A program made the position numbers and the translations under genes. From NCBI GenBank assembly GCA_903884815.1, contig CAISGE010000027.1, positions 18,780-82,779 of the forward strand: a DNA stretch of 64,000 bases, read 5' to 3'. The DNA comes from Candidatus Omnitrophota bacterium (GTDB lineage Bacteria > Omnitrophota > Omnitrophia > Omnitrophales > Aquincolibacteriaceae). This document shows positions 12,695 to 31,179 of this stretch, piece after piece. Position 1 is the first letter of the stretch. Each line of letters begins with the position of its first letter. The notes under the pieces are model-generated. The model was not told the DNA's origin. It did not search any database and worked only from the letters and a program-made list of their open reading frames with translations.

Positions 12695-12722
12695 TTGACA
12701 CCCCCCTCGATTTTTTTATAAT
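12695..12722 (+). promoter_or_regulatory. consensus sigma-70 promoter TTGACA-16nt-TATAAT driving accD
   Basis: Perfect hexamers: TTGACA 12695-12700, TATAAT 12717-12722. Confidence 0.55.
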
Positions 12723-12748: not shown

Positions 12749-12792
12749 CCACGAGACAGCTTCTTTGTCGAGGTCCTTCTCGTGGTTTTTTT
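12749..12792 (+). terminator. terminator-like hairpin (CCACGAGA...TCTCGTGG) plus T7 inside the accD 5' leader. Possible attenuator or autoregulatory structure.
   Basis: Seen directly: 8-bp perfect stem, 21-nt loop, TTTTTTT at 12786-12792, located between the promoter and the accD ATG at 12834. Confidence 0.4.
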
Positions 12793-12833: not shown

Positions 12834-13670
12834 ATGCCTCACACACCTGCGTTGCTTGTGACTAAAGGACTTAGAAAAAATAGCATGCCCGTCGGCTTGT
12901 GGACGAAATGTCCCAGCTGCCAGTCGGTCATGTTCAATAAAACTCTCAAAGAAAATCTGCTCGTCTGCACGAAATGCGCCTATCACTTTATCATGGGTGC
13001 CATGGAAAGAATTCACCATCTCGCGGACCCCGACACGTTCGTCGAAAGGGATGCCGACCTCCGCTCCGAAGACCCGCTCAAGTTCTCCGCCGTCAAGGCC
13101 TATACTGAAAAGGTCAAAGCTGATCAAAAAAAGACCGGATTAAAAGAAGCCTGCGTCATCGGAACCGCCAAGATCCACGGCAAAGCCTGTGCGTTGGGCG
13201 TGACGGACTCCCGGTTCATCATGGGTTCCATGGGATCCGTCGTTGGGGAAAAGATCACCCGTCTGATCGAGCATGCCCTTGAGCAAAAACTTCCGCTTAT
13301 CATTGTTTCCGGATCCGGAGGCGGCGCGCGCATGTATGAGGGCGCTCTCAGTCTCATGCAAATGGCGAAAACCTCCGTCGCTCTCGCGCGTTACCAAAAG
13401 GAAGGATTGTCATTCATCTCAGTGCTCACGAATCCCACCATGGGCGGCGTCATGGCGAGTTTTGCGTCACTCGGCGATATCATTGTTGCGGAACCACGAG
13501 CACTCTTGGGCTTCGCGGGACCGCGCGTTATTGAACAGACGATCCGCCAAAAACTTCCCGCGGACTTCCAAACTTCAGAATTCCTGATGGAACACGGCTT
13601 TGTGGACATGGTGGTGGAACGGCAGGACCTGAAGCAAAAGCTCGGCCTTTTACTCGAATATCTTTCCTGA
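12834..13670 (+). CDS. accD: acetyl-CoA carboxylase carboxyltransferase subunit beta
   Basis: N-terminal Zn ribbon CPSC...CTKC. Carboxyltransferase core GSMGSVVGEK and FAGPRVIEQT. Start at MPHTPALL, collinear with E. coli AccD. Confidence 0.9.
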   Translation: MPHTPALLVTKGLRKNSMPVGLWTKCPSCQSVMFNKTLKENLLVCTKCAYHFIMGAMERIHHLADPDTFVERDADLRSEDPLKFSAVKAYTEKVKADQKKTGLKEACVIGTAKIHGKACALGVTDSRFIMGSMGSVVGEKITRLIEHALEQKLPLIIVSGSGGGARMYEGALSLMQMAKTSVALARYQKEGLSFISVLTNPTMGGVMASFASLGDIIVAEPRALLGFAGPRVIEQTIRQKLPADFQTSEFLMEHGFVDMVVERQDLKQKLGLLLEYLS

Positions 13671-13691: not shown

Positions 13692-14798
13692 GTGGCGAAC
13701 GTCACTTTAAAGAACGTTTCTAAGAGTTACAAGGACGGCGTCCGGGCAGTCAATAATGTCAGCCTTGAGATCGCGGACCGGGAGTTCGTGGTACTCGTCG
13801 GGCCTTCAGGTTGCGGAAAATCCACTACGCTGCGGATGATGGCTGGGCTCGAGGAGATCACCGATGGAGAGATCTTCATTGAGAACGTCCTGGTGAACCA
13901 TGTCCCCGCCAAGAACCGCGATATCGCGATGGTGTTCCAGAATTACGCGCTTTACCCTCACATGACCGTTTATGAGAATCTCGCCTTCGGCCTAAAATTG
14001 CGCCGTTACCCTCGAAAAGAGATCGAGCGACGCGTTCACGAATCTGCCGAGATCCTAGGCTTGACCATGGAGATGCTGAAGCGACGCCCCAAGGAACTTT
14101 CCGGTGGTGAGCGTCAGCGGGTGGCCGTAGGCCGCGCGATCGTCCGCAAACCCAAAGTGTTTCTCTTTGATGAACCTCTCAGCAACTTGGACGCCAAACT
14201 CCGGGTGCAAATGCGCATGGAACTTCAGAAACTGCACAACCGTCTCCAGTCCACCATGGTCTATGTGACACACGACCAGGTTGAGGCTCTGACACTTGGT
14301 GACCGCATCGTCGTGATGCACCACGGCCTCGTCCAGCAGGTGGCCGATCCGGTGAATCTCTACGAACGGCCCCACAACAAGTTCGTCGCGGGTTTTATCG
14401 GCTCTCCGCCGATGAATTTCCTCAAAGGCACGATCCTCGCGGAAGACGGGGACTATTATTTTCAGGATCGGAATATCAAACTGCGCATCCTGCCGCACTT
14501 TTATTCGAGAATCGCGCAGTTCAAAGGCCAATCGCTCACCATGGGCATACGCCCCGAGGATATTTACGATAAAATCTTCGCTCAAGACGCCCGTCCCGAA
14601 TTCACGATCACGGCCACGGTCGACGTAGTCGAACCGATGGGCTCCGAAATCTATCTCTATCTGACCTGCGGCACAAACAATTTCGTGGTTCGCGTTTCAA
14701 ACCAGGACACCGCGGCTATGAACCAGGACCTTCAGGTAGTCTTTGATATGAGCAAGGCACATTTCTTTGATCCTCAAACAGGCGTTGCAATCTCATAA
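13692..14798 (+). CDS. ABC transporter ATP-binding protein, MalK/UgpC/MsmK type, with a C-terminal regulatory (TOBE) domain
   Basis: Walker A GPSGCGKST, signature LSGGERQR, Walker B VFLFDEPLSNLD. About 368 aa. No permease or binding-protein gene adjacent. Confidence 0.9.
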   Translation: MANVTLKNVSKSYKDGVRAVNNVSLEIADREFVVLVGPSGCGKSTTLRMMAGLEEITDGEIFIENVLVNHVPAKNRDIAMVFQNYALYPHMTVYENLAFGLKLRRYPRKEIERRVHESAEILGLTMEMLKRRPKELSGGERQRVAVGRAIVRKPKVFLFDEPLSNLDAKLRVQMRMELQKLHNRLQSTMVYVTHDQVEALTLGDRIVVMHHGLVQQVADPVNLYERPHNKFVAGFIGSPPMNFLKGTILAEDGDYYFQDRNIKLRILPHFYSRIAQFKGQSLTMGIRPEDIYDKIFAQDARPEFTITATVDVVEPMGSEIYLYLTCGTNNFVVRVSNQDTAAMNQDLQVVFDMSKAHFFDPQTGVAIS

Positions 14799-14837
14799 GT
14801 GACAAAGGCCTATCCTTGTCTGAATGTTGCCTCTCCA

Positions 14838-14877
14838 AGGGTTGACAAGGACGGTCCTGACTATCATTTTCAACCCT
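14838..14877. promoter_or_regulatory. nested palindrome (AGGGTTGA...TCAACCCT enclosing AGGAC-G-GTCCT) upstream of the first GGDEF gene
   Basis: Seen directly. Possible operator or terminator for the ABC ATPase gene. Confidence 0.3.
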
Positions 14878-14906
14878 CCGAATTTGATAAGAATTGGGAC
14901 TAAGTC

Positions 14907-16352
14907 ATGGGCTCACAGACCCGTCGTCAAGTCGCGTTCGCGTTCGGCGTAGGCGCCGGCTTACTCCTTATATTTCTTGTTATTTACTCCCTCGCGCAGC
15001 TTAAAAACACGGAAGTTCCCGAGATCCACCTCCAACGCATTGCGGTTATCCTGACCGCTTTTTCTATAACTCTTTTCACTACGTGGTGGCGCTTCAAGTG
15101 GGTCGGAGTCAATCTTCTCGCGGCCCTCATTCTTATACCACTAGTGCTCTTTGTCGTCTCGGTCACGAAGATCCCTGTGTTCCTTTGGATCCTTTTGGTT
15201 TACGGGGTCATACTCTTTGTCCTCCACCGCACCGATCAACACTTCGAAAACCAGATCGCGATGCTCGGGATCGAACAGGAAAAATACGAGGATGAAACAA
15301 ATAATCTCAGTCTGGCGTTCAAGGCCAAAGGCGAAGGAATCAGCACTTTCTTTGAGAAATACTCCACTTATTACAATCTCCGCAAACTCGCGGAAGAACT
15401 GACGGTCAGCATCTCTTGGGCCGATCTCGCGCAAAAGGCGGTCGACCGCGCAATGGATTTTATCCCACGTGGTGATTTCGCAAAGATCGCACTAGCGCAC
15501 GGTGAGGAAAAAAAACTCCCTGTGGTGGCCAGACGCCGGTTGCGTCCCGTGGGAAACTGGAATGCGAAGCAAGGGGACCTTTTTGACTTTTGGTGCATCA
15601 AGAATCGCAAGCGCCTGATCATTATGGACACCCAGGAAGACTTCCGGTTCGTCCTGAGCGATTCAGAAAAAAAAGACAATGTGCGCAGCTTGATCGTCGC
15701 GCCGCTCTTCCATGAAGGCCGCGTGGCGGGGACGATCGCAATCCACGCGACGCGCCCCAATGTTTTCAGCCATGATGACCTCCGGCTACTGGACGCTATC
15801 GCCACGCTGGCATCCTCGGCCATCTCCAATGCGATCCTTTACGAGAAGACCGAAGAATTGGCGATCAAGGATTCATTGACGGGGCTTTTCGTGAGGCGTT
15901 ATTTTTTCGAACGTCTCAAAGAAGAACATCGCCGCGCGCTCCTCAACCAGAAAGACCTTTCTTTCCTGATGTGCGACTTAGATCATTTCAAAGAATGCAA
16001 CGACAAGTTCGGCCATCAGGGCGGTGATCTGATGCTGGTCCAATTCGCGGAGATTCTCACCCAATGTCTAAAAGGTTCCCTTCTGGCTCGCTATGGCGGA
16101 GAGGAATTCGCGATCCTACTGCCGGAAACGACGAAAGCAGAAGCCCTGAAAATTTCCGAGCAAGTCCGGAAAGCGGTCGAGGGATCGGACTTCAACATCC
16201 GACGTGAAAAGGTCAAAATGACGGTCTCCATAGGAGTCGCGAACCTTCCCGATGACACCCTGGATGCTGAGAATCTTGTCCAAAAAGCGGATCAGGCGCT
16301 TTACCGCGCGAAAAGGGAAGGGAGGAACCGCGTATGCGCGTCCACTTCTTAA
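14907..16352 (+). CDS. membrane-anchored GAF-like / GGDEF diguanylate cyclase (active-site GGEEF, no RxxD I-site)
   Basis: N-terminal TM helices. RYGGEEF with upstream DxLTGL and downstream KxxLYRAK(R)EGRNR. Confidence 0.85.
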   Translation: MGSQTRRQVAFAFGVGAGLLLIFLVIYSLAQLKNTEVPEIHLQRIAVILTAFSITLFTTWWRFKWVGVNLLAALILIPLVLFVVSVTKIPVFLWILLVYGVILFVLHRTDQHFENQIAMLGIEQEKYEDETNNLSLAFKAKGEGISTFFEKYSTYYNLRKLAEELTVSISWADLAQKAVDRAMDFIPRGDFAKIALAHGEEKKLPVVARRRLRPVGNWNAKQGDLFDFWCIKNRKRLIIMDTQEDFRFVLSDSEKKDNVRSLIVAPLFHEGRVAGTIAIHATRPNVFSHDDLRLLDAIATLASSAISNAILYEKTEELAIKDSLTGLFVRRYFFERLKEEHRRALLNQKDLSFLMCDLDHFKECNDKFGHQGGDLMLVQFAEILTQCLKGSLLARYGGEEFAILLPETTKAEALKISEQVRKAVEGSDFNIRREKVKMTVSIGVANLPDDTLDAENLVQKADQALYRAKREGRNRVCASTS

Positions 16353-17716
16353 TCCTTTTGTGCCTCGGGGCGCTCATGGCCTTCGTTGTCTGGCAATCCC
16401 AGGAGGTCATTCTGGCCTATTACCTCCTTTCAGCTTTCTGGCTTATGCCTCTTTTCTATTTTTGGAAATCAAAGACGTATCCGATGCTCGCCTTCGCAAC
16501 GATTGGCGTTCTTTGTCTTCATGGATATTTTTTCAAGTTCAATCCTTCCCTGAGGATCGTTGCCCTCGGCATCTTTCAAATTTTTCTTTTTTTGGGGTTC
16601 TCGTATTACTGGTGGGAGCTTAAGCGTTTTCATGACCGCGCCGTCGCCTCCAAAGAACATATTCGCAAGAGCCTTGAATCTTTTCAGGCTAAGTATCAGA
16701 CACGCCTCGGCAGTTTACGCCATCTAGAGATCCAAGTAAGCAGCCTGATGAATCTTTTTGAGATCGCCCGGGATTTTAGCGAATGCATGGATTTCAAAAC
16801 GCTGGCCGAGTTTCTGTTGAAAAAACTTCGCTCGGAACTCGTCTTCGACAAAATGGCGATTTATCTTTTGCCGCGATCGGGTCCCTCCCAGGGGACAGCT
16901 CTTGCAAGGATTCACTCCATGCTACAGGAGGGGGTCCAGGAGGAAGAGCGCGCGCTTACGGAGACGGAGCAAAAACATTTTACAGCGATGGCACTCTCGA
17001 AGGCCATGCTCCGCGATGAGGACAAATGGTATTTCCCAATCCTCGAATCGGGGGAAATCATCGCTGTGTTTGCGGTCCATGGTATCAAAGAAGAAGATTT
17101 GGCCCGCGTCGAAGTCTTAAGCGCTTATCTCGTGCTTTTGATCAAAAAGATCAAGCTCTACGAAACGGTCCGGGAACTGGCGATCGTGGACGAATTGACC
17201 CAGGTTTTCGTGCGCCATCACTTTCTCGTGCGTCTTGAGGAAGAATTACGCCGTAGTATCCGCTTCAAGCTCCCGATGACGGTATTAATGTTAGACATCG
17301 ATCATTTCAAAAGATATAATGACGACTTCGGACACCTCGTCGGTGATGCGACGCTTAAAGAAGTCGCGAATCTCCTCAAAAACAGCTTGCGCCGGGTGGA
17401 TCTTGTAGGCCGTTATGGTGGGGAAGAGTTCATCGTGGCCATGCCGGAGACGAGGATCGCTAACGCCGCAGAAGTCGCCGAACGTATTCGCTCCAGCATC
17501 GCGCGGCATGACTTTCAGGTCTATAACGTCAGGACCAAAGTGACCGTTAGCCAGGGGATCATGGTCTTTGACGGAGAAGATACGGCTGCAACAGCGGGCC
17601 TTGATCCAAAAGAAATTGTGGCGGAACTAATTAGGAAAGCGGACGAATCCATGTACCGCGCTAAAGAAGAAGGCCGCAATCGCGTTTGTCTTCATAAGGA
17701 TGCCAAGAAACCGTGA
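16334..17716 (+). CDS. second membrane-anchored GGDEF diguanylate cyclase (GGEEF with an RRVD I-site), paralogous to the upstream gene and overlapping it by 19 nt
   Basis: RYGGEEF preceded by RRVDLVG (RxxD). Same architecture as the upstream gene. Confidence 0.85.
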   Translation: MRVHFLILLCLGALMAFVVWQSQEVILAYYLLSAFWLMPLFYFWKSKTYPMLAFATIGVLCLHGYFFKFNPSLRIVALGIFQIFLFLGFSYYWWELKRFHDRAVASKEHIRKSLESFQAKYQTRLGSLRHLEIQVSSLMNLFEIARDFSECMDFKTLAEFLLKKLRSELVFDKMAIYLLPRSGPSQGTALARIHSMLQEGVQEEERALTETEQKHFTAMALSKAMLRDEDKWYFPILESGEIIAVFAVHGIKEEDLARVEVLSAYLVLLIKKIKLYETVRELAIVDELTQVFVRHHFLVRLEEELRRSIRFKLPMTVLMLDIDHFKRYNDDFGHLVGDATLKEVANLLKNSLRRVDLVGRYGGEEFIVAMPETRIANAAEVAERIRSSIARHDFQVYNVRTKVTVSQGIMVFDGEDTAATAGLDPKEIVAELIRKADESMYRAKEEGRNRVCLHKDAKKP

Positions 17717-20127
17717 ATCCAGCATTAAGATTAAGGCTCTCCGCCAAATACGCCCTCACGCTTCTGGCTTTTGCTTTATTTATTTCCAGCGGCATGTCCG
17801 TCGCGCACTCCGCGGAAAATCCAAAGGCAGACAACTCGTCCGCAGAAGCCTCCCAAAATCCTCCATCGCGAGTACCGACCAAGAACATTTACAACCCCCA
17901 GGATGCCAAGATCGAAGCGGTTGCGGACAGTCTGGAATATCAGAAGGACACCGGAAAACTTATCGCTAGAGGAAATGCCATTATCACCTACCAAGGCACC
18001 AAGATCCTCGCCGATTACGCGGAAGTGGAAACCGACGCCAAGAAAGCATACGCCAAGGGACACGTGATGATCTTCAAAAACGATGCGCCCAAACTGCAGG
18101 GCGAGGAGATCTATTATGATTTCGGAAATCATACCGGAAGTTTCCCCAACGCCCGAGCGATCAGTTTCCCGTTTTATGCGAAAGGAAAGGAGATCCGCCA
18201 GATCCGCGAAGGAGTGAGCAAAATCGAGGACGGCGTCGTGACTTCCTGCAACCTTGAAAAGCCCCACTATGAGATCCGTTGCAAAAAGGCAACCCTCTAT
18301 GCGAACGAAAAGCTCCTCATGCGTAGCGTAACGATCTACGTACTCGGCGTGCCCGTCTTCTGGCTTCCGTGGATGGATATCCCTCTGAATCTTCCGAAAA
18401 TTCCGCTCCAAATCAAAACGGGACATAGCACGCAGTACGGGTACTACGCTGAGCTTTCAAAAGTCATCGCGCTCAACAAACAACTCTGGGGGAAGGCTCA
18501 CATCGACTATCGGTCCAAGCGAGGATTCGGTGGGGGATGGGACCAGTACTACGACTTCGGGAAATACGCCAAGGGCAGCATTGTCCTTTATCTGACCCAG
18601 GATAAGAAAGCGCCCACACCGGGTTATATAAACCCATCCTCGGGACAATTAGATCCTTATTCCGTTCGTCAAGACAGAGAGCGAGGCCGTATCACCTGGC
18701 GCCACCGTACGGATATTGATGACAACACGAATATCCTCCTGCGCTATCACCGCGTTGCCGACCAATACCTCCTTCAGGATTTCTTTGAAGATGAGTACTC
18801 CCGGGAAATGCAGCCTCAATCCTTTGTGACTGCCAATCATAATACCGAACACTACGGGGCCATGATCCATCTCGAGAAAAAAATGAACAGTTATGAATCC
18901 ATGGTTGAGCGCTTGCCGGAAATTCGGCTTGATCTGAAGAACCAGCCTTTATACAAGGAACTCATCTTCAACGAAAGCCGAGTTCAGTTCGACAATCTCA
19001 ATATCACTTACCCCCACAGCACCACACACCAGGGCGCAATGCGCACGGATTTCTCTAATCGTTGGTACATGCCTCTTCGCTGGAAGGACATCAACCTGAC
19101 TCCTTTTGCGGGCTATCGCGCCACAGGATACAGCAGCCTGCTCAATTCGGACGCCTCAAAGCTCCGAAACGTACTCGAGTACGGCACCGATCTTCGAACG
19201 CATTTCTACAAGACCTTTGATGTCTCGTTCGACAAAATGGGCATCGAAGTCAACGAACTTCGGCACGTCGCTGTCCCGAGCGTTGCTTTTAAGGGCACAA
19301 GCAGCACGATCAAGAACAGTGAGCTCATCCATTTTGACACGACGGATGTTCTTGACGACGCGGCGGAACTACAATTCGGGCTTGAAAACCGGCTCCAGAC
19401 AAAGCGCATCATCAACGGCAAGGCCCAGCGCGTCGACATTGTCAGTCTGAACACTTATTTGCATTTTGAGGCCTCTCCCAAAAACTCCACGAACGGCGAG
19501 AGCACCTTTACCACCATGGGAAATGAGCTCACCCTGCGCCCCTACGAGTGGATGCAATTCCAAACACGGCTTGAGTACGATTTTTCAGGGAACTATCTGA
19601 AATTCTCCACCAATGATTTGCTGATCCGGCATGGCGCTTTTAAATTCGTATTCGGATTTCGTTATACGCACCCCAATTATAACTACTACACGGACGAGTT
19701 TATCCCCAAGAGCCAGGAGGTTGTTTTTGACACCCGCTATCAGCTCAACAAGCTGTGGGAGATCGGCGGCTATGTTCGTTACGATACCTCCACGAGCGGT
19801 GTTCAGGAATTCCAGATCTCCGCCGCCCGCGATCTGCACGACTTCATCCTGGAATTCGGTTATAACCAACGTAACTCCCTGATCAACCAGAACAATAATG
19901 AAGTGTTCGTCAATTTCCGCATGAAGGGGGTACCCGGGATCTCGATTGGCGGAGGCGGCGGACGCGCCAACTTTTCTGAACCACGCATCGGTGAAACCGT
20001 GGCAGGCGCGAACGAAGGCGCTGGCAGGTTCGCAACACCGATGATGGCCGATGATGCACAACTCATTACATCCCCCGATCAGCAGCAGTCTTTCACCAAC
20101 TCACACTCAATGTCTCAGGTCAGCTAA
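17713..20127 (+). CDS. lptD: LPS-assembly outer-membrane protein LptD (OstA/Imp family)
   Basis: Signal peptide, N-terminal OstA domain (ADSLEYQKDTGKLIARGNAIITYQGTKILADYAEV), large C-terminal beta-rich region. ATGA overlap with the upstream GGDEF gene. Confidence 0.8.
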   Translation: MNPALRLRLSAKYALTLLAFALFISSGMSVAHSAENPKADNSSAEASQNPPSRVPTKNIYNPQDAKIEAVADSLEYQKDTGKLIARGNAIITYQGTKILADYAEVETDAKKAYAKGHVMIFKNDAPKLQGEEIYYDFGNHTGSFPNARAISFPFYAKGKEIRQIREGVSKIEDGVVTSCNLEKPHYEIRCKKATLYANEKLLMRSVTIYVLGVPVFWLPWMDIPLNLPKIPLQIKTGHSTQYGYYAELSKVIALNKQLWGKAHIDYRSKRGFGGGWDQYYDFGKYAKGSIVLYLTQDKKAPTPGYINPSSGQLDPYSVRQDRERGRITWRHRTDIDDNTNILLRYHRVADQYLLQDFFEDEYSREMQPQSFVTANHNTEHYGAMIHLEKKMNSYESMVERLPEIRLDLKNQPLYKELIFNESRVQFDNLNITYPHSTTHQGAMRTDFSNRWYMPLRWKDINLTPFAGYRATGYSSLLNSDASKLRNVLEYGTDLRTHFYKTFDVSFDKMGIEVNELRHVAVPSVAFKGTSSTIKNSELIHFDTTDVLDDAAELQFGLENRLQTKRIINGKAQRVDIVSLNTYLHFEASPKNSTNGESTFTTMGNELTLRPYEWMQFQTRLEYDFSGNYLKFSTNDLLIRHGAFKFVFGFRYTHPNYNYYTDEFIPKSQEVVFDTRYQLNKLWEIGGYVRYDTSTSGVQEFQISAARDLHDFILEFGYNQRNSLINQNNNEVFVNFRMKGVPGISIGGGGGRANFSEPRIGETVAGANEGAGRFATPMMADDAQLITSPDQQQSFTNSHSMSQVS

Positions 20128-21426
20128 ATGAAAATTGGGATCATTGGTTCTGGATATGTGGGACTTGTCACAGGAACTTGCCTAGCACATCTGGGGCATA
20201 CCGTCACTTGCGTGGACCAGGATCCCACCAAGATCCGGACGCTGAAGAAAGGCAAAATCCCGTTCTATGAGCCGGGCCTCATGGAAATGGTCCTCGAGTG
20301 CGTTGCAGCCAAACGCCTTTCCTTTACGACAGAAATATCGAAGATCGTCAATCGTTGCGAAGTTCTTTTTATCTGCGTCAATACGCCTCCTATGCCGGAC
20401 GGGGGTGCGGACTTAACCTTCGTGGAAAAGGTGGCCCGTCAGATCGCGACCCATTTACGAGGTTATTGCTTGGTGGTGGAGAAAAGCACCGTCCCTGTCG
20501 AAACAGGGGAATGGGTGCGCCAAACGATCAAACGGAATGTGAGAAAAGGCGTCCAGTTCGACGTCGCCTCGAACCCGGAGTTTCTCCGCGAAGGCTCCGC
20601 GATCCGTGATTTCCTTCAACCGGACCGCATCGTGATCGGTGTTTCAAGTGACCGCGCGGAAAAGCTCTTCCGGAAACTTTACAGTCCCCTCAAAGCGCCC
20701 ATGATCGTCACTGACATTAAAAGCGCCGAACTTATCAAGCATGCCGCCAATTCGTTTCTCGCGACCAAGATCTCTTTCACCAACGCGGTTTCAAGGATCT
20801 GCGACGCGGTCGGTGCAGACATTGAAAAGGTCGCTCTCGGAATGGGCCTTGATCCGCGTATCGGAAAACAATTTCTCAAAGCGGGTGTGGGTTTCGGCGG
20901 ATCCTGTTTTCCCAAAGATGTGAGCGCATTCCTCCATATCTCTGAAAAACTGGGCACACGTTTTGAACTTCTCGCGGACGTTTTGAAGATCAATGACGCT
21001 CAAGCGAAATATTTTGTGGAGGGAATCAAGAACTCCATGAAGACGCTGCGAGGAAAAACGATCGGTGTTCTTGGACTGGCTTTTAAACCTGACACAGATG
21101 ATATGCGCTCGGCACCTTCGATCCCAATCATTCAGATGCTTCAGAAAGAAGGAGCCCGCATCCTGGCTTATGATCCCCAGGCCGCCGCAAAAGCGGCTGA
21201 AACACTTCGCGATGTCAGTTATGTTTCAGCGCCGTATGCCGTCGCTCAAGGAGCGCACGCGATCGTCGTTCTGACGGAGTGGTCTGAATTTCTCAATCTG
21301 GACTGGGCAAGACTCAAAAAGTCCATGAAGGACCGCTTCTTTTTTGATGGCCGTAATATGTTTCAACCTGAGGAAATGAAAACACTCGGGTTCCGCTATT
21401 CGAGCATCGGCCGGCCTTCGGCCTAA
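20128..21426 (+). CDS. ugd: UDP-glucose 6-dehydrogenase (nucleotide-sugar dehydrogenase family)
   Basis: MKIGIIGSGYVGLVTG NAD-binding start. Catalytic GFGGSCFPKD motif. Confidence 0.85.
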   Translation: MKIGIIGSGYVGLVTGTCLAHLGHTVTCVDQDPTKIRTLKKGKIPFYEPGLMEMVLECVAAKRLSFTTEISKIVNRCEVLFICVNTPPMPDGGADLTFVEKVARQIATHLRGYCLVVEKSTVPVETGEWVRQTIKRNVRKGVQFDVASNPEFLREGSAIRDFLQPDRIVIGVSSDRAEKLFRKLYSPLKAPMIVTDIKSAELIKHAANSFLATKISFTNAVSRICDAVGADIEKVALGMGLDPRIGKQFLKAGVGFGGSCFPKDVSAFLHISEKLGTRFELLADVLKINDAQAKYFVEGIKNSMKTLRGKTIGVLGLAFKPDTDDMRSAPSIPIIQMLQKEGARILAYDPQAAAKAAETLRDVSYVSAPYAVAQGAHAIVVLTEWSEFLNLDWARLKKSMKDRFFFDGRNMFQPEEMKTLGFRYSSIGRPSA

Positions 21427-21441
21427 AAAGGAGGAGCTGCC

Positions 21442-22173
21442 ATGAAAGGCGTCATTCTCGCGGGAGGTCTCGGAAGCCGGCTTTTCCCGCTCACCAAAGT
21501 CACCAATAAGCATCTTCTCCCTGTTTATAATAAACCGATGATTTATTATCCGATCGAAACCCTGGTGCGCGCCGGAGTGCGCGACATTCTTATCGTGACC
21601 GGCGGGAATTCCTCCGGGGATTTCCTCAAGCTCCTCGGGAATGGAAAACAGTTCGGCCTGAAACATATCAACTACACCTATCAGGAAGGCGAGGGCGGGA
21701 TAGCACACGCGCTAGGGCTCGCAGAACATTTTGTAGGAAAAGACAAAATGGTGGTGGTGCTTGGCGACAATATCGTTCAGGAAGATATCACGCCCCATGT
21801 CCAGCACTTCGATCAGCAAACGGAAGGCGCCCGGCTTCTTCTCAAGAAAGTCCCCGACCCTGAACGCTTTGGTGTCGCCACTTTCAAGAAAGGCCGTATC
21901 ACCGGGATCATCGAAAAACCCAGGAACCCGAAAAGCCCCTACGCCGTCATCGGCGTTTACATGTATGATGCGACAGTGTTCAGTTTTATCAAGACCCTCA
22001 AACCCTCCCGCAGGGGAGAACTTGAGATCACGGACGTGAACAACTGGTACCTCAAGCGCGGCGTTCTGGAATATGACCTCCTCAAAGGTTTCTGGACGGA
22101 TGCCGGCCAATTCGAATCTCTTCATCGCGCCAACACTCTCGTCGCTCGCCAGGCAGGTTATAAGTCTGTATGA
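21442..22173 (+). CDS. sugar-phosphate nucleotidyltransferase, short-form RmlA-like (glucose-1-phosphate thymidylyltransferase-like)
   Basis: MKGVILAGGLGSRLFPLT...NKPMIYYPIE signature. About 243 aa. AGGAGG RBS. Confidence 0.75.
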   Translation: MKGVILAGGLGSRLFPLTKVTNKHLLPVYNKPMIYYPIETLVRAGVRDILIVTGGNSSGDFLKLLGNGKQFGLKHINYTYQEGEGGIAHALGLAEHFVGKDKMVVVLGDNIVQEDITPHVQHFDQQTEGARLLLKKVPDPERFGVATFKKGRITGIIEKPRNPKSPYAVIGVYMYDATVFSFIKTLKPSRRGELEITDVNNWYLKRGVLEYDLLKGFWTDAGQFESLHRANTLVARQAGYKSV

Positions 22174-23150
22174 AGCGCCTGCTCGTCACCGGAGGCTGCG
22201 GTTTCATCGGTTCTAATTTCATCCGCTTTTTTCTCAAGAGCCGACCGGGATGGAGCGTGATCAATCTCGACAAGCTCAGCTATTCCGGCAATCCCGCGAA
22301 CCTTCGCGATCTTAGGGGCTCTTCCCGTTACAAATTCGTCAAAGGTGACATTCTCGACAAAAAACTTGTCCTTAAGTTGATGAAACATGCTTCGGGCGTT
22401 GTGCATTTCGCCGCGGAGACCCACGTCGACCGGTCCATCGAAAGCGCGGATGATTTCCTTAAAACCAATATCCTAGGGACTGCTTCTCTTCTTGAGGCCT
22501 CGCTCGCATGCGGAACCAAGAGATTCGTCCACATGGCCACCGACGAGGTTTACGGTTCGATCCCACGGGGGTATGCCGATGAGCGGGCACCGCTTCTCCC
22601 GAACAGCCCTTATTCCGCTTCGAAAGCAGGTGCGGACCTCCTGGTACGATCATTCCAGGAAACCTACAAGCATCCCGCCATGATCGTGCGTTGTACGAAT
22701 AATTACGGACCGTATCAATTCCCCGAAAAGGTTATCCCGCTCTTCGTGACCAATTTGATCGAAGGAAAGACCGTCCCGCTTTACGGGAATGGCAAGAACC
22801 GTCGCGACTGGATCTATGTCGAAGACGCTTGCCGGGCGATCCTGCTTGTCCTTGAGAAAGGTCGCGCTGGGGAGACTTACAATATCGGCGCGCATAACGA
22901 GATGAATAACATCGATCTGACTTTCGCGATCCTCCGTCATTTTGGAAAGGGTAAGGAGATGATCCGCTGCGTCAAAGATCGCCTCGGTCATGATCTGCGT
23001 TATGCCGTGAATTTCAATAAATTGAAGAAACTTGGCTTCAAGCCTCGATGGACGTTTGCGAAAGGGCTGGCCGTGACCGCGAAATGGTATCGCGAAAATC
23101 CGCAGTGGTGGCAACCCCTGAAACAAGATAAGTATACGGTCAAATCATGA
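22170..23150 (+). CDS. rfbB: dTDP-glucose 4,6-dehydratase
   Basis: MKRLLVTGGCGFIGSNF, catalytic YSASK and TDEVYG motifs. Overlaps the upstream gene (ATGA). Confidence 0.9.
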   Translation: MKRLLVTGGCGFIGSNFIRFFLKSRPGWSVINLDKLSYSGNPANLRDLRGSSRYKFVKGDILDKKLVLKLMKHASGVVHFAAETHVDRSIESADDFLKTNILGTASLLEASLACGTKRFVHMATDEVYGSIPRGYADERAPLLPNSPYSASKAGADLLVRSFQETYKHPAMIVRCTNNYGPYQFPEKVIPLFVTNLIEGKTVPLYGNGKNRRDWIYVEDACRAILLVLEKGRAGETYNIGAHNEMNNIDLTFAILRHFGKGKEMIRCVKDRLGHDLRYAVNFNKLKKLGFKPRWTFAKGLAVTAKWYRENPQWWQPLKQDKYTVKS

Positions 23151-24124
23151 CCGTTCAGGCTCCGATGAAGATCCTAATCACGGGTGCGGGAGGCATGCTC
23201 GGGACCGATCTGACAAATGTCCTAAAAGAAGATTATGAGATCCTGGGGCTGGAACGCCGTCCTGTCACGCATTTAACCGTCCCCTACGATATTTGCGACC
23301 TCACGCAAGCCCGTAAGACGCGGGACGCCATTCTGAGCCAAAGACCGGATCTCATCTTTCACACGGCAGCGATGACGGACGTAGACTATTGTGAAGGCCA
23401 TCAGGACGAAGCCCTGGAGAGCAATGTCGCAGCCACGGGAAATGTCGTGACGGCCGCAAATGAAATCGATGCGCCGGTCATCTTTTACAGCACCGATTAT
23501 GTTTTTGACGGAATGAAGTCTGGCGAGTATGACGAATCGGATACACCGAACCCTCTCAGCTTCTATGGAAAAACAAAACGCATGGGTGAAGAGGCACTTC
23601 TGAACGGTGCCCGACGGGCCGTCATTTTCCGCATCACCTGGCTCTTTGGGATCTGGGGTCGTAGCTTTCCGAAGGCTATTCTGCGCCAAGCTGCGGAGAT
23701 GAAGAAAATGAATGTCGTCAACGACCAGGTCGGCCGCCCCACATGGTCGTGGGATGTTGCCATCGCCATGCGGCACCTTTTGAAGAACAAGATAGAAACC
23801 ATCCTGCGCCCGGGAACAGAGATCTATAATCTTGGGAATTCCGGCACTGTCCACTGGGCAGACTACGCCCGTTTTATTTTAAAAAACTCCGGACTGGGCG
23901 ACGTCAAGGTCAAAGACATCCCAAGCTCACATCTTGAGCGCCCGGCACCGCGCCCGGCGAATTCGGTTCTGGCTCTCGGCAAGGCCGAAAAGGTCCTCGG
24001 TCTAAAACTGCGATCTTGGGAGGAAGCGACGCTGGAATTCCTGCCAAAACTTAAGGATGAAATGGCCGCCCTGGAAGCCAAAGAAAAGGCTAAGGCCGCT
24101 GAAAAGGAAAATCTGCCGTCATGA
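23147..24124 (+). CDS. rfbD: dTDP-4-dehydrorhamnose reductase (RmlD) with a Lys/Ala-rich C-terminal tail
   Basis: MKILITGAGGMLG. RmlD-like fold and length. The terminal tail is KEKAKAAEKENLPS. Confidence 0.8.
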   Translation: MTVQAPMKILITGAGGMLGTDLTNVLKEDYEILGLERRPVTHLTVPYDICDLTQARKTRDAILSQRPDLIFHTAAMTDVDYCEGHQDEALESNVAATGNVVTAANEIDAPVIFYSTDYVFDGMKSGEYDESDTPNPLSFYGKTKRMGEEALLNGARRAVIFRITWLFGIWGRSFPKAILRQAAEMKKMNVVNDQVGRPTWSWDVAIAMRHLLKNKIETILRPGTEIYNLGNSGTVHWADYARFILKNSGLGDVKVKDIPSSHLERPAPRPANSVLALGKAEKVLGLKLRSWEEATLEFLPKLKDEMAALEAKEKAKAAEKENLPS

Positions 24125-24202
24125 TTCTCTATTTTGAAGATAAACGGGTAATTATGACGGTCCCAATCACCCTCATTTTAAATAAAATCGAGATTGGGAC
24201 CG

Positions 24203-25153
24203 ATGCCTACTAAAAAGACATGCATTGTCACGGGAGGCGGGGGATTTCTGGGATCGCATCTTTGCGACCGTTTTTTGGCCAGAAAATGGCACGTTATCGC
24301 GATCGATAATTTCCTCACGGGGAACGAAAAAAATATCGCTCATCTCAAAACAAATAAGTCCTTTCACTTGATCCGACATGATGTCAGCAAAACGATCCAT
24401 ATCCCGGGCCGAGTGGATTATGTGCTTCACTTCGCCTCGCCGGCAAGCCCGCTGGATTATCTGGAATTTCCCATTCAGACACTCAAAGTCGGTGCGCTCG
24501 GAACGCACAATGCCCTGGGTCTTGCCAAAGACAAGAAAGCCGTTTTCCTTTTAGCCTCGACTTCCGAAGTCTACGGCGATCCGCTTGTCCATCCCCAAAC
24601 CGAAGAATACTGGGGGAATGTCAATCCCGTCGGACCCCGGGGTGTTTATGATGAGGCGAAACGTTTCGCGGAAGCCATCACCATGGCCTATCACCGAACG
24701 CATAAGTTAGACGCCAAGATCATCCGAATTTTCAACACCTATGGGCCGAGAATGCGCCTTCGCGACGGCCGGGCGATTCCGGCTTTTCTGTCCCAGGCTT
24801 TGACCGGAAAACCTCTGACGGTATTCGGCGACGGTCGCCAGACGCGAAGCCTTTGTTATGTCACCGATCTCGTTCGCGGCATCGAAAAACTTCTCCTTTC
24901 CGGTCTCAATGAACCCATCAATATTGGAAATCCCAATGAGATCTCCATGACAGACCTTGCAAAAAGGATCCTTCGAATTACCGGCAGCTCGAGCGGCATC
25001 GTCCACCGGAAACTCCCTGTCGACGATCCGAAGGTGCGCCAGCCCGATATTCGCAAAGCCAAAAAATATTTATCTTGGACTCCGGAGGTTCCGTTGGACG
25101 AAGGTTTGAAATACACGATTGAATATTTCAAACACGCCTTACGGAAGAAATAG
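24203..25153 (+). CDS. UDP-glucuronate decarboxylase-like SDR (UDP-xylose synthase / ArnA C-terminal-domain-like); an alternative TTG start lies at 24194
   Basis: [19 protein letters not shown]...[10 protein letters not shown], catalytic YDEAKR. About 315 aa, typical of UXS. Confidence 0.75.
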
Positions 25154-25872
25154 TGCCCCCCTTTCTTTCGGTGGTAATTCCCGCCTATAACGAAGAGAAG
25201 CGCCTTCAGTATTCCCTCGCCTCGGTGCTTGATTTTCTAAAACAACAATCGTACTTGTGGGAGATCCTTGTTTCGGATGACGGAAGTAGCGACGGGACAG
25301 CGGCTCTTGCCCGGGAGACGCTCAAAGGCCTGCCGCACCAAGTTTTGGTCTCACCCCTCAACCGGGGCAAAGGACACGCGGTCCGGCAGGGGGTACTGGC
25401 CGCTCATGGACATTACATACTTCACTCTGACGCTGATTTTTCGACCCCCATCGAAGAAGTCACCCGCTTCCTGGGCTATCTCGAGAAAGATTTTGATATC
25501 GTGATCGGTTCCCGAGCGCTTCCGGATTCCAAAGTAGAAGTCCGCCAAAATTTCATTAGGGAGACCATGGGGCGCACATTCAACCGTCTTGCGCGCCTTT
25601 TCTCCTTTAAGGGTATCCATGATTCGCAGTGCGGCTTTAAATGTTTTCGGGGGGAGGTGGCAAAAAATCTTTTCAGCCACTCGAGGCTGAATGGCTTCAG
25701 TTTTGATCCCGAGATCATCTTCCTCGCTCAAAAGAGAGGCTATCGCATCCGGGAAGAACCCGTGATCTGGCGGAATTCTCCACAAAGTCGCGTTCGGCTG
25801 ATCGCGGACCCGATTCATATGTTCTGGGATCTCCTCAAAATCCGTGGGATGCATCGCCACACAAAGCTCTAG
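25153..25872 (+). CDS. GT2 polyprenyl-phosphate/dolichyl-phosphate sugar synthase-like (Dpm1/ArnC-like, soluble form). GTG start overlapping the upstream stop.
   Basis: LSVVIPAYNEE...VSDDGSSDGT...DAD motifs. Confidence 0.8.
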   Translation: MPPFLSVVIPAYNEEKRLQYSLASVLDFLKQQSYLWEILVSDDGSSDGTAALARETLKGLPHQVLVSPLNRGKGHAVRQGVLAAHGHYILHSDADFSTPIEEVTRFLGYLEKDFDIVIGSRALPDSKVEVRQNFIRETMGRTFNRLARLFSFKGIHDSQCGFKCFRGEVAKNLFSHSRLNGFSFDPEIIFLAQKRGYRIREEPVIWRNSPQSRVRLIADPIHMFWDLLKIRGMHRHTKL

Positions 25873-28484: not shown

Positions 28485-29228
28485 CTACAGCTTATCACTT
28501 AGCAAAGCTCCAGCTTTATACCTCTTCGATGTGCGGTAGCTCCAAAACTTCAGACCTTCCCATAACGCGAAGCCCATGATTTTCAGATTGACGGAAGATT
28601 TGCCCCATTGACGGCCGCGGTGATTGGAGGGGATCTCCTTGATGCGAAATCCAAGATCGTGGGCCTTCACAATGATCTCGGGAAGCACAAAGAGAGATTT
28701 CGAGGTAAGGTCGATCCGGTCGAGGACTTTGCGGCTCCAGGCCTGCGACCAGTTGTAGTCATTGATGCGGATCCTGAACAGATAGTTGAGAAGAAAGATA
28801 TAGATCACGGACAAAAAGAACCGGAAAAGCTGATAAGCGTTCCTCTGCCATCTCACCCCGAGCACCAGATCCGCTTCATCCCGCAGAAAGATATTCACAA
28901 AATCAGGGATCTCCGAAGAATCGAACTCCTCGTCCGCCCCCACGTACATGAGGTATTTCCCGCGCGCCGCAGCCATACCATCTTTCAGAGAACACGTATA
29001 GCCCTTGTTCTGGTCATGAATAATAAGTCGGGTGTGGGGATATTTCGGGATTTCCGATTTAAGGACGGGGAGGGTCTTGTCTTTGCTGCCATCCTCGATA
29101 AGTATCACTTCCCAGTTCCATTCCGGATGAGCGTTGAGAACGGTAAAGAGATTCGCAAGCATCCGAGCGATATTCTCTTCCTCGTTGTAGACCGGCGTAA
29201 TAAAACTGATGAATACGGGGGAATCCAT
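28485..29228 (-). CDS. GT2 polyprenyl-phosphate sugar synthase-like (Dpm1/ArnC-like)
   Basis: ISFITPVYNEEENI...LIEDGSKDKT...GADEE. Start at MDSPVF (29228). Divergent from the carbamoyltransferase gene. Confidence 0.8.
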   Translation of the reverse strand: MDSPVFISFITPVYNEEENIARMLANLFTVLNAHPEWNWEVILIEDGSKDKTLPVLKSEIPKYPHTRLIIHDQNKGYTCSLKDGMAAARGKYLMYVGADEEFDSSEIPDFVNIFLRDEADLVLGVRWQRNAYQLFRFFLSVIYIFLLNYLFRIRINDYNWSQAWSRKVLDRIDLTSKSLFVLPEIIVKAHDLGFRIKEIPSNHRGRQWGKSSVNLKIMGFALWEGLKFWSYRTSKRYKAGALLSDKL

Positions 29229-29348
29229 ACGTGTAAGATTAATGTTTTTAGAGGCCGATGTCAATTGTCGCTCGAAGGGTTTTCTGTTAACATGCCCGAC
29301 ATTCGTGACAGAACGCGCGTTTGAGCGCAAACGATCGGGAGAAAATTC

Positions 29349-31166
29349 TTGAACGTCCTTGGTATTTCAGCTTTTTATCATGACAGCGCGTCCTGCCTCA
29401 TCCGGGAAGGGGCGATCGTCGCCGCGGCCCAGGAAGAGCGTTTTACGCGCAAAAAACATGACTTCTCTTTTCCCCGGCACGCCATCGATTTCTGCCTCAA
29501 GAAAGGCGAGCTCCGATCTTCAGATCTTGATTGTGTCGCATTCTACGACAAACCATTCCTCAAATTCGAACGTATCCTGGAGACTTATCTGGCCTACGCG
29601 CCTCACGGGATCGCATCCTTTCTTCAGGCCATGCCGCTTTGGATCAAACAGAAACTCTGGATGAAAGACTACCTCCAGACCGAACTCAACTTTAATGGCA
29701 AGATCATTTTCCCCGAACACCATCAGTCGCATGCTGCATCCGCATTCTTCCCTTCGCCATTTGAAGAGGCCGCATTCCTCACCATGGACGGCGTCGGAGA
29801 ATGGGCCACCACCAGCTACGGCGTCGGAAAAGGAAACAAGATCGAGATTCAGGCCGAGATCCGGTTTCCCCATTCCCTCGGACTCCTGTATTCCGCTTTC
29901 ACTTATTACACCGGCTTCCGAGTCAACTCCGGCGAATACAAGGTGATGGGCCTCGCGCCTTACGGCAAGCCGATCTTCAAGGACCTCATCCTCAAAGAAC
30001 TGATCGATCTGAAAGAGGACGGCTCCTTCAAGCTCAATATGAAATACTTCGATTACGCTGCAGGTCTCCGCATGACAAATGGCCGTTTTCATAAACTTTT
30101 CGGCGCGCCTCCGCGAAAGCCCGAGTCCCGGGTCACTCAACGTGAAATGGACCTCGCTCGCTCGATCCAGGAAGTCACTGAGGAAGTCATGCTTCGAGTC
30201 ACGCGACATGTCCATGAAGTGACGGGGCAGAAGAATCTTTGCCTCGCCGGAGGTGTCGCACTGAACTGCGTCGGCAATGGCCGAATTCTTCGTGAAGGTC
30301 CGTTCAAAAATATCTGGATACAGCCTGCCTCAGGGGACGCCGGCGGCGCTTTGGGAGCGGCCTCCTTTGCATGGCACCAATACCTGGACAAGCCACGGAC
30401 CGTAAATGGAAAAACCGACAGCATGCGAGGCTCTTATCTAGGGCCCGAATACCCAAACGAAGACATCGAGTCATTCCTCACGGAACATCGAATCCCTTTC
30501 ACGAAACTCACGGACAAGGAACTCCCGGAAAAGATCGCGGATCTTATCGCTCAGGAAAAAGTTATTGGCTGGTTCCAGGGTCCTATGGAGTTCGGCCCCC
30601 GTGCCTTGGGCGGTCGCTCCATTCTCGGGGACTCCCGCTCTCCCAAAATGCAGGAGCAAATGAATCTCAAGATCAAGTTCCGTGAGAGCTTCAGGCCGTT
30701 CGCGCCATCCGTCACGCTTGAAAGAGTGTCGAATTATTTTGAACTCGAGACCGAAAGTCCCTATATGCTTCTCGTAGCGCCGGTGCAAAAGAAGTGGCGC
30801 CGTGAAATGACGGAGACTGAAAAGAAACTGGAGGGGATCGAACTACTGAACGTAAAGCGCTCCGAGATCCCAGCCGTCACGCATGTCGATTATTCCGCAC
30901 GCGTCCAAACCATCACCCCGGTGCAAAATCCCCGGTTTTACGCCCTACTCAAAGCCTTTGACGAGAAGCATGGATGCCCCGTCATGATCAATACCTCCTT
31001 CAATGTGCGCGGAGAGCCGATCGTCTGCACGCCTGAGGATGCATTCCGCTGTTTTATGCGCACGCAAATGGACCATCTGGTCCTGGGTAATTATCTGCTT
31101 ACGAAGACAGAACAGAAGCCCCTTGAAAAAGACAGCGAATGGATGAAAGAGTTCGAACTCGATTGA
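29349..31166 (+). CDS. carbamoyltransferase, NodU/CmcH/NovN/TobZ/SxtI family (TTG start)
   Basis: LGISAFYHDSA N-terminus, HH(Q/L)SHAASAF, and the C-terminal YrdC/Kae1-like half with NTSFN. 605 aa. Confidence 0.85.
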   Translation: MNVLGISAFYHDSASCLIREGAIVAAAQEERFTRKKHDFSFPRHAIDFCLKKGELRSSDLDCVAFYDKPFLKFERILETYLAYAPHGIASFLQAMPLWIKQKLWMKDYLQTELNFNGKIIFPEHHQSHAASAFFPSPFEEAAFLTMDGVGEWATTSYGVGKGNKIEIQAEIRFPHSLGLLYSAFTYYTGFRVNSGEYKVMGLAPYGKPIFKDLILKELIDLKEDGSFKLNMKYFDYAAGLRMTNGRFHKLFGAPPRKPESRVTQREMDLARSIQEVTEEVMLRVTRHVHEVTGQKNLCLAGGVALNCVGNGRILREGPFKNIWIQPASGDAGGALGAASFAWHQYLDKPRTVNGKTDSMRGSYLGPEYPNEDIESFLTEHRIPFTKLTDKELPEKIADLIAQEKVIGWFQGPMEFGPRALGGRSILGDSRSPKMQEQMNLKIKFRESFRPFAPSVTLERVSNYFELETESPYMLLVAPVQKKWRREMTETEKKLEGIELLNVKRSEIPAVTHVDYSARVQTITPVQNPRFYALLKAFDEKHGCPVMINTSFNVRGEPIVCTPEDAFRCFMRTQMDHLVLGNYLLTKTEQKPLEKDSEWMKEFELD

Positions 31167-31179
31167 TCACACCCTTTTC

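Follow-up and report, generated by a model that had tools for sequence, protein, structure and literature searches.

Why do two diguanylate cyclase genes stand directly in front of lptD in the Omnitrophota, and does this arrangement tie c-di-GMP synthesis to LPS assembly? The DNA that raises the question is a 64-kb window (the whole stretch analysed) of a Candidatus Omnitrophota MAG (GCA_903884815.1, contig CAISGE010000027.1), and its relevant features are collected in Table 1. The E. coli lptD locus has the order lptD-surA-pdxA-rsmA-apaGH. In contrast to this proteobacterial arrangement, two GGDEF genes lie 5' of lptD here and ugd, rml and uxs genes lie 3' of it, without surA or pdxA.

Table 1. 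Genes and candidate control elements around the cyclase pair and lptD, in positions of the 64-kb window.
Feature	Position	Strand	Basis and remarks
P1, sigma-70 consensus TTGACA-16-TATAAT	12695..12722	+	12/12 match; between divergent rpoN and accD
Terminator-like hairpin CCACGAGA...TCTCGTGG and T7 run	12749..12792	+	Read from sequence; ~20 nt past predicted P1 start
accD (acetyl-CoA carboxylase carboxyltransferase beta)	12835..13670	+	Pfam Carboxyl_trans, Zn_ribbon_ACC; syntenic in nearly all loci
UgpC/MalK-type ABC ATPase, OB/TOBE regulatory domain	13692..14798	+	NCBIfam UgpC subfamily; Pfam
DGC1	14907..16352	+	481 aa; Pfam GGDEF 160 bits, GAF_2 53 bits
DGC2	16334..17716	+	460 aa; Pfam GGDEF 143.5 bits
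P2, 42-nt block GTATTAATGTTAGACATCGATCATTTCAAAAGATATAATGAC in DGC2	17282..17323	+	TAGACA-17-TATAAT; nucleotide-invariant
lptD	17713..20127	+	804 aa; Pfam LptD, AF2 model, Foldseek
ugd (UDP-glucose 6-dehydrogenase)	20128..21426	+	Three UDPG_MGDP_dh Pfam domains; TIGR03026 470 bits
Short RmlA-like sugar-1-phosphate nucleotidyltransferase, 243 aa	21442..22173	+	Pfam NTP_transferase
rmlB (dTDP-glucose 4,6-dehydratase)	22170..23150	+	TIGR01181 432 bits, cut-off 365
rmlD (dTDP-4-dehydrorhamnose reductase)	23147..24124	+	TIGR01214 244 bits, cut-off 224
uxs (UDP-glucuronate decarboxylase; product UDP-xylose)	24194..25153	+	phmmer
GT2, polyprenyl-phosphate sugar synthase type (ArnC/DPMS-like)	25153..25872	+	Pfam Glycos_transf_2

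The third ORF of the group is a genuine LptD, and its identification from the sequence alone was borne out by Pfam, an AF2 model and Foldseek. The Pfam LptD profile (PF04453) was matched over positions 2-384 of 384, with a weak score (45.4 bits; cut-off 22.4). The homologs were all Omnitrophota LptD, annotated as such and carrying PF04453 with or without PF03968. In the AF2 model (mean pLDDT 72), beta-jellyroll strands at residues ~68-225 are followed by a beta-barrel of about 26-27 long strands at ~232-737. The best Foldseek matches of this model were all full-length LptD structures (E 1e-31 to 1e-25, TM 0.52-0.65), and the N-terminal domain matched PDB 7omm by phmmer. A signal peptide can be read from the sequence as a basic N-region and a hydrophobic core, ALTLLAFALFISSG, followed by AHS/AE. 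The protein belongs to the same family as proteobacterial LptD, and its predicted fold agrees with the solved LptD structures. E. coli LptD has two interdomain disulfides; these are probably absent here, since C179 is the sole invariant cysteine in an alignment of 20 LptD sequences. Also unlike E. coli LptD, the Omnitrophota protein ends in an added C-terminal tail, which is disordered and carries an invariant motif, FSEPRIGETVAGANE. A GTDB scan with two peptide patterns returned a single lptD locus per genome, and this lptD appears to be the sole LptD ortholog of these genomes. No lptE, lptA, lptC, lptB, lptF or lptG was recognisable among the ORFs of the 64-kb window.

The two genes in front of lptD encode paralogous membrane GGDEF proteins, as had been read from the sequence; domain searches, hydrophobic helices, BLASTP and hhalign all agree on this, and the two co-directional genes overlap by 19 nt. 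DGC1 has four hydrophobic N-terminal TM helices, a coiled coil, a GAF domain and a GGDEF domain, and DGC2 has four such helices, a GAF-like region and a GGDEF domain. Both score far above the cut-offs of PF00990 (159.7 and 143.5 bits for DGC1 and DGC2; cut-off 23.8) and TIGR00254 (174 and 162 bits; cut-off 37.4). The signature is GGEEF in both, at residues 397-401 of DGC1 (nt 16095-16109) and 362-366 of DGC2 (nt 17417-17431). Both cyclases are predicted to be enzymatically active: the Mg/GTP residues DxD...F-K-x-x-N-D-x-x-G-H-x-x-G-D, the R before GG and YRAK...GRN are invariant columns in both cyclase alignments. They are 38% identical over 224 aa (BLASTP), and their family profiles align over nearly the full length (hhalign E 7e-72). 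The duplication that gave rise to these full-length paralogs would be older than the sampled radiation.

The paralogs differ at the inhibitory site. Product inhibition of the PleD/WspR type acts through an RxxD I-site. DGC2 resembles PleD and WspR in having such a site (RRVD, residues 353-356), and in 57/57 DGC2 orthologs GGEEF is preceded by RxxD at a distance of exactly five residues. Unlike PleD and WspR, DGC2 is paired with a paralog that lacks the I-site: DGC1 and all of its orthologs (54/54) have GGEEF without it, and RxxD was found in 0/54. We know of no described conserved tandem cyclase pair with one I-site-bearing and one I-site-free member. The 19-nt overlap is retained in most lineages, and the two proteins may be synthesised in constant proportion and function jointly, perhaps as a heterodimer in which one subunit is feedback-inhibited. 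The four-helix membrane module and the GAF domain would form the sensing part.

Downstream of lptD, the assignments of ugd, rmlB, rmlD and the GT2 made in the sequence-only reading hold, and two others had to be adjusted. The product called RmlA is only RmlA-like, scoring ~250 bits with rmlA equivalogs whose NCBIfam cut-offs are 320 and 360. The protein described as a UXS-like SDR is a true UXS, which matched the human UXS1 structures 2b69 and 4gll over residues 7-316 (E 2e-100, 339 bits). The top PDB matches of the GT2 were ArnC and Dpm synthase (E ~1e-14), with every NCBIfam equivalog under its cut-off. Neither the cluster nor the other annotated ORFs of the window yielded an rmlC; the dTDP-L-rhamnose pathway (rmlABCD) is incomplete here, with rmlB and rmlD passing their cut-offs and rmlA falling below. 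Upstream of the cyclases, the ATPase reached 489 bits with the NCBIfam UgpC subfamily model (cut-off 432) and carries Pfam ABC_tran, OB_MalK and TOBE_2. No permease gene adjoins it. Its identity among loci is 57-96% and its position is always directly 5' of DGC1. For accD, the ATG at 12835 is a likelier start than the mechanical ORF start at 12765.

The genes are closely packed, broadly as first described. DGC2 and lptD do overlap by 4 nt; the overlap reads GTGA and not the ATGA first given, because the start codon of lptD is GTG. An SD-like AAGGA lies 5' of this start and is conserved in the close clade. The gaps after lptD, before ugd, the rmlA-like gene, rmlB, rmlD, uxs and the GT2 gene in turn, are 0, 15, -4, -4, 69 and -1 nt; most fit the earlier "zero to a few nucleotides", and those of 15 and 69 nt do not. 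Over the whole cluster, the gaps lie between -19 and +15 nt with two exceptions, of 69 and 108 nt. A scan from accD through the GT2 gene found no terminator-like site at any gene junction. The cluster therefore has what an operon is expected to have, namely co-directional genes, abutting or overlapping stops and starts, and terminator-free junctions. However, the window is compact and almost single-stranded in its coding, and junctions of -4, -1 or 0 nt are usual there even between unrelated genes: UDG/priA, tpi/secG and smc/pgsA each overlap by 4 nt. Tight junctions are thus the background state of this DNA, and by themselves prove little.

Stronger evidence than the tight junctions comes from relatives. 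The order accD, ugpC-like ATPase, DGC1, DGC2, lptD was found in 53/56 species-level Omnitrophota genomes with enough flanking sequence, far above chance, and ugd lies directly 3' of lptD in 61/65 loci. This synteny spans LptD identities from 70% down to 26%, so the GGDEF-lptD linkage, whose conservation the sequence-only reading had proposed as a check, is upheld. The co-location of the cyclase pair and lptD is confirmed as a conserved co-directional cluster. The flanks decay faster than this core: the distant clade has lost rpoN, and por is adjacent only in some close relatives. In other clades, a gene for a transaldolase-like protein or a ROK kinase separates DGC2 from lptD. In three lineages the ATPase and both cyclases are lost and accD-lptD or ROK-lptD is kept, which indicates that lptD needs no cyclases in cis.

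Where transcription of this array would start is suggested by P1. In 38 of 47 related loci, a P1-like match of at least 10/12 occurs at the same relative position, ~200 nt ahead of the AccD zinc ribbon; in 17 of the 38 it is a perfect 12/12. P1 is the likely start of the whole cluster, and a consensus promoter before accD would place the beginning of the transcription unit 5' of the cyclases. The hairpin in the leader is kept in 14/16 close-clade loci, with 2 pairs changed on both sides, and is a possible attenuator.

A second candidate promoter, P2, lies in the GGDEF-coding part of DGC2, ~390 nt ahead of lptD. Its hexamers (-35 at 17292-17297, -10 at 17315-17320) match the sigma-70 consensus at 11/12 positions, and the site is present in 46/60 DGC2 orthologs; the background frequency of such matches is 0.073 per kb. 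Synonymous sites are frozen over DGC2 codons 317-332, and in a nucleotide alignment the block is invariant across ~20 diverse species. Codon choice within it is nearly fixed (Tyr TAT 47/47, Asn AAT 52/58, Arg AGA 39/45, Phe TTC 54/58), and third positions of the neighbouring codons stand at about 0.1-0.4 bits. In the same species, the corresponding part of DGC1 is freely variable. Since P2 is frozen at synonymous sites and its DGC1 counterpart is variable, lptD probably has its own embedded promoter, which would also serve the genes 3' of lptD. P2 is missing from the most distant clade (L050, L061-L080), where synteny still holds. The ftsZ promoters of the dcw cluster lie inside ddlB, ftsQ and ftsA. 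The present arrangement is similar in that a promoter for an essential downstream gene would lie in the preceding ORF within a strongly conserved gene order; it differs in that the host gene encodes a signalling enzyme and that the evidence for P2 is purely comparative, resting on the 42-nt synonymous freezing.

The block could also be an operator bound by a regulatory protein, a site in the RNA at which a protein, an sRNA or an RNase acts, or a promoter for antisense transcription. The 17-nt spacer, which includes the palindrome ATCGAT, and the 10 nt 5' of the -35 are as invariant as the hexamers; a simple promoter would not usually have such an invariant spacer. The implied leader would also be long (~385 nt). 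We nevertheless regard a non-promoter element as improbable given the 11/12 match with optimal 17-nt spacing, the canonical TTGACA/TATAAT promoter at accD in the same genomes, and an Rfam search of 17200-17800 that found nothing at E<=5. An antisense promoter fits poorly, as the minus strand reads TTGAAA-17-TAATAC and the promoter scan reported none there.

These observations bear on the single long transcript proposed in the earlier reading. The co-directional genes, terminator-free junctions and conserved order stand, and read-through across the junctions is plausible. On the other side is P2, a conserved sigma-70 match within DGC2; an independent start before lptD, which the sequence-only reading had named as evidence against its proposal, probably exists there, judging from the consensus match, the synonymous constraint and the DGC1 control. 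A single obligatory transcript is doubtful. Collectively, we consider it reasonably likely that the locus is an ancient gene array for envelope biogenesis, conserved in the Omnitrophota and served by two or more promoters. P1 would drive accD, the UgpC-type ATPase, DGC1 and DGC2, and lptD, ugd, the rml genes, uxs and the GT2 gene would be transcribed by read-through from P1 plus P2. P2 would permit the LPS exporter, presumably an essential protein, and the enzymes of sugar-nucleotide synthesis to be expressed independently of the cyclases. The activity of P1 and P2 and the read-through are what we infer from sequence. A point against this account is the P1 hairpin, at which the majority of transcripts could end; accD and the cyclases would then be poorly accounted for.

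A different reading, which we find possible but doubtful, is that the synteny is structurally locked and reflects no functional link, the c-di-GMP of the pair acting on unrelated targets. The 19-nt and 4-nt overlaps and an embedded lptD promoter would make rearrangement deleterious in streamlined genomes. The conserved overlaps and the position of P2 inside DGC2 agree with this, as do the unrelated housekeeping genes in the array (accD and the UgpC-type ATPase), the gene that intervenes between DGC2 and lptD elsewhere, and the equally tight packing of unrelated neighbours in the window. The absence of a c-di-GMP effector or riboswitch points the same way: no PilZ domain was found by Pfam in the scanned ORFs of the cluster and window, and an Rfam search of the whole window at the gathering threshold gave only tRNA and no c-di-GMP riboswitch. 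However, the core block outlasts its flanks, and synteny holds in the clade without P2, where a further gene stands between DGC2 and lptD, so that entanglement alone cannot explain the deepest conservation.

The coupling originally proposed is in our view unlikely. On that proposal, a single long mRNA links c-di-GMP synthesis to the insertion of LPS and the synthesis of envelope sugars, and LPS assembly or modification is either under c-di-GMP control or regulated together with c-di-GMP. Such coupling would account for the linkage in nearly all sampled species, for the overlapping stops and starts and for the terminator-free junctions, and membrane-embedded cyclase sensor modules could report envelope state. 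YfiBNR/DgcN is an envelope-stress-responsive diguanylate cyclase system. In P. aeruginosa, the Wsp/WspR cyclase system likewise connects envelope state to c-di-GMP, but Wsp-dependent c-di-GMP hardly changed when lptD was depleted (PMC9170161). Neither Wsp nor YfiBNR/DgcN is known to be encoded together with Lpt genes, and they sense via a chemosensory complex or a periplasmic partner. In the present case, a four-helix membrane module with GAF would be the sensor, and only gene position connects it with LPS. The candidate promoter ahead of lptD argues against one obligatory transcript, and the cluster has no known c-di-GMP receptor or riboswitch. The loss of the cyclases from the locus in some lineages also speaks against coupling, and our literature search found no paper linking GGDEF genes with lptD.

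The most speculative reading, which we hold to be quite improbable, is that DGC1 and DGC2 form a heteromeric membrane sensor of inner-membrane or LPS-precursor status, shared by almost all Omnitrophota sampled and with one subunit feedback-inhibited and the other not, which sets c-di-GMP levels and thereby tunes LPS export or glycan decoration; the frozen block would then be a regulated promoter or operator that integrates the signal at lptD. Both the heteromer and the link from c-di-GMP to LPS export we infer from the sequences. To our knowledge, a coupling of this kind between c-di-GMP signalling and outer-membrane biogenesis is undescribed in any bacterium. If such a sensor exists, the coupling would be ancestral.

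The stretch from 12.7 to 25.9 kb is a single co-directional array on the + strand, in the order accD, a UgpC/MalK-type ABC ATPase gene, DGC1, DGC2, lptD, ugd, a short RmlA-like nucleotidyltransferase gene, rmlB, rmlD, an SDR gene and a GT2 gene. DGC1 and DGC2 are two adjacent GGDEF genes encoding predicted diguanylate cyclases, and rpoN lies upstream of accD in divergent orientation. To follow this array in relatives, one genome per GTDB species was scanned by LptD alignment, giving 80 loci with an LptD identity of 70-26%, and the window proteins were compared by BLAST with the ORFs of these loci. The linkage of GGDEF genes to lptD, noticed earlier in this one sequence, is kept in relatives: among the 56 loci whose sequence extends 4.2 kb or more upstream, 53 have both cyclases directly 5' of lptD. 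ugd is directly 3' of lptD in 61/65 loci, and accD and the ATPase gene precede the cyclases nearly everywhere. Conservation falls off sooner in the flanks: the deepest clade has lost rpoN, and only some close relatives have por genes next to the cluster. It is thus the core block that is preferentially kept. Genes are inserted between DGC2 and lptD at loci L034, L038, L050-L057 and L061-L080 of the scan; one clade has a transaldolase/FSA-like gene (~215-238 aa) and a deeper clade a ROK-family sugar kinase gene (~305-345 aa), with the remaining order kept in each. The ATPase and both cyclases are missing at L070 (8988-12055), which has the order ROK-lptD, and at L075 (1858-7115) and L078 (1479-6903), which have the order accD-ROK-SDR-lptD without ugd after lptD. 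In L075 and L078, the ATPase and both cyclases seem to have gone together, in a single block. The array is real and conserved in nearly all sampled Omnitrophota, and is built of ordinary families (GGDEF, LptD and sugar-nucleotide enzymes). Full-text literature searches found no paper linking GGDEF genes with the lptD locus and none on Omnitrophota LptD. The gene order of the array was also observed in loci deposited as Ca. Elulimicrobium sp. (NCBI phylum Ca. Elulimicrobiota; L063), Planctomycetales (L065), Planctomycetia (L079) and Mariniphaga (L077). These labels or bins may be off, or the arrangement may reach past Omnitrophota as NCBI defines the phylum.

Coordinates of the genes and sequence elements in the window
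Feature	Position	Strand	Description
P1	12695-12722	+	candidate sigma-70 promoter, perfect TTGACA-16-TATAAT, between rpoN and accD
Leader hairpin	12749-12792	+	hairpin and T7 run, ~20 nt past the predicted P1 start, just before accD
ABC ATPase	13692-14798	+	UgpC/MalK-type, TOBE regulatory domain
ATPase-DGC1 gap	14799-14906		108 nt
DGC1	14907-16352	+	GGDEF protein
DGC2	16334-17716	+	GGDEF protein
Invariant block	17282-17323		42 nt, around P2
P2	17292-17320		candidate promoter, 11/12 match, TAGACA-17-TATAAT, within DGC2, ~390 nt 5' of lptD
lptD	17713-20127	+	804-aa outer-membrane protein
LptD tail	19927-20124		residues 739-804, predicted disordered
Array genes after lptD	20128-25872		include ugd, UXS and ArnC/DPMS-like GT2
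Further genes	28485-35602		GT2s, carbamoyltransferase, DegT aminotransferase, HAD phosphatase, MGDG-synthase-like GT

The sequence-only reading had taken the tight gene junctions as a sign of coupling. The 19-nt overlap of DGC1 and DGC2 was confirmed and is found again in most lineages. The overlap of DGC2 and lptD has the claimed length of 4 nt, its sequence being GTGA and not ATGA. The gaps after lptD, described as zero to a few nucleotides, are 0, 15, -4, -4, 69 and -1 nt, so that some fall within that range and those of 15 and 69 nt do not. Tight junctions were ruled out as evidence of coupling: the window is compact and nearly all on one strand, and packing is not meaningful alone because a 4-nt overlap is also seen in unrelated pairs (UDG/priA, tpi/secG and smc/pgsA). 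No other protein of the array is as well conserved as the ATPase (57-96% identity), which is always encoded immediately 5' of DGC1, as an orphan without an adjoining permease or binding protein. The gap separating it from DGC1 is ~100-190 nt in L008, L017 and L021 and ~18 nt in most others; in the window, this gap contains no match of at least 9/12 to the sigma-70 consensus. The SDR, previously called UXS-like, turns out to be a true UDP-glucuronate decarboxylase (E 2e-100 against human UXS1), and the GT2 is similar to ArnC and DPMS, which are polyprenyl-phosphate sugar synthases. Together with ugd, these two genes suggest that a xylose-type pentose linked to polyprenyl phosphate is made for glycosylation in the periplasm. 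No rmlC was found among the annotated ORFs of the window, though rmlA-like, rmlB and rmlD genes are present. More GT2s, with genes for a carbamoyltransferase, a DegT aminotransferase, a HAD phosphatase and an MGDG-synthase-like GT, come after the array at 28485-35602.

At its N-terminus, each cyclase has, as read directly from the sequence, four hydrophobic helices joined by very short loops. A coiled-coil stretch, a region that is GAF in DGC1 and GAF-like in DGC2, and the GGDEF domain follow. Both proteins contain GGEEF and the full set of expected residues for binding metal and GTP, and ortholog alignments revealed these to be invariant. By profile-profile alignment, the two families are paralogous across nearly their full length (E 7e-72). 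The RxxD I-site was found in none of 54 DGC1 orthologs and in all 57 DGC2 orthologs. The sequence comparison suggests that the genes duplicated long ago and have kept distinct roles since, and would be consistent with the pair forming a heteromeric enzyme.

The Pfam score of the 804-aa protein for LptD is modest (45 bits). Its AF2 model, based on 20 homologs, has a mean pLDDT of 72 and shows an N-terminal β-jellyroll and ~26-27 barrel strands; the top PDB matches of this model are all full-length LptD structures (E ~1e-31). Database homologs (72-42% identity), which stem from MAGs of Candidatus Omnitrophota, carry the annotation LptD. We accept the protein as LptD. Compared to E. coli LptD, the Omnitrophota protein has one invariant cysteine only (20-sequence alignment) and ends in a tail, predicted to be disordered, that carries the invariant motif FSEPRIGETVAGANE, in which P757, R758, I759, G760, T762 and G765 are invariant among 20 homologs of 41-72% identity. 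We know of no such C-terminal tail in canonical LptD. The tail could act as a plug or as a peptide for interactions in the periplasm.

A single long transcript had been proposed for the cyclases, lptD and the sugar-nucleotide genes. The array is co-directional, with P1 lying ahead of it and P2 as a candidate start before lptD. A 10-12/12 match was found at the relative place of P1 in 38 of 47 loci, and since P1 is ahead of accD, the unit begins upstream of the cyclase-lptD stretch originally considered. The hairpin in the P1 leader is kept in 14/16 close relatives, and the stretch between P1 and the hairpin is not conserved. The hairpin could be a transcription attenuator or give rise to a ~65-nt short RNA.

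Among 60 DGC2 orthologs, 46 have the P2 site; in the background, matches of this kind occur at 0.073 per kb. In a codon alignment of 58 DGC2 orthologs, profiled for synonymous conservation over codons 300-345, the synonymous sites of codons 317-332 are frozen (Tyr TAT 47/47, Asn AAT 52/58, Arg AGA 39/45 and Phe TTC 54/58), and neighbouring third positions carry just ~0.1-0.4 bits. A nucleotide alignment of 20 diverse species revealed that the whole 42-nt block is invariant. Amino-acid constraint or codon bias cannot explain this block, because in the control nucleotide alignment of the homologous DxDHFKxxND stretch of DGC1, from the same species, third positions vary freely. It is possible that the block is instead an operator or RNA element, for which the spacer of P2, invariant as well, leaves room. 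Most simply, the conserved sites can be read as P2 being a promoter embedded in DGC2 that serves lptD and the genes that follow. The proposal of a single transcript probably falls short, as lptD is likely to be transcribed from a start of its own. The block is missing from the deepest clade, where the DGC2-ROK gap has only weak promoter-like sites (9/12 matches, not above shuffles).

Co-location and conservation of the cyclases and lptD were confirmed, and exceed what was expected. A sober alternative is that the overlaps and the embedded promoter lock these genes together without any functional link; however, synteny is also kept in the clade where P2 is missing, so locking cannot be the whole story. 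Control of LPS assembly by c-di-GMP is treated here as a hypothesis drawn from gene order. No c-di-GMP riboswitch or other known RNA was found in the putative lptD leader at E<=5, none in the window at the Rfam gathering threshold, and no PilZ or other recognisable c-di-GMP receptor in a Pfam scan of the window ORFs. In P. aeruginosa, lptD depletion barely changed Wsp-dependent c-di-GMP (PMC9170161). We consider it unlikely that DGC1 and DGC2 would form a heteromeric membrane sensor that tunes LPS export or glycan decoration via c-di-GMP.

The P2 block is a clean and testable example of putative regulatory DNA lying within a gene, and it offers a simple reason for the stability of the neighbourhood. 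LptD is an essential, drug-targeted machine. Two predicted c-di-GMP synthases directly before lptD, in nearly all sampled species of a candidate phylum, are a concrete comparative lead, tempered by the organisms being uncultured and by tight packing being usual in this genome. The array could connect second-messenger signalling with outer-membrane assembly.
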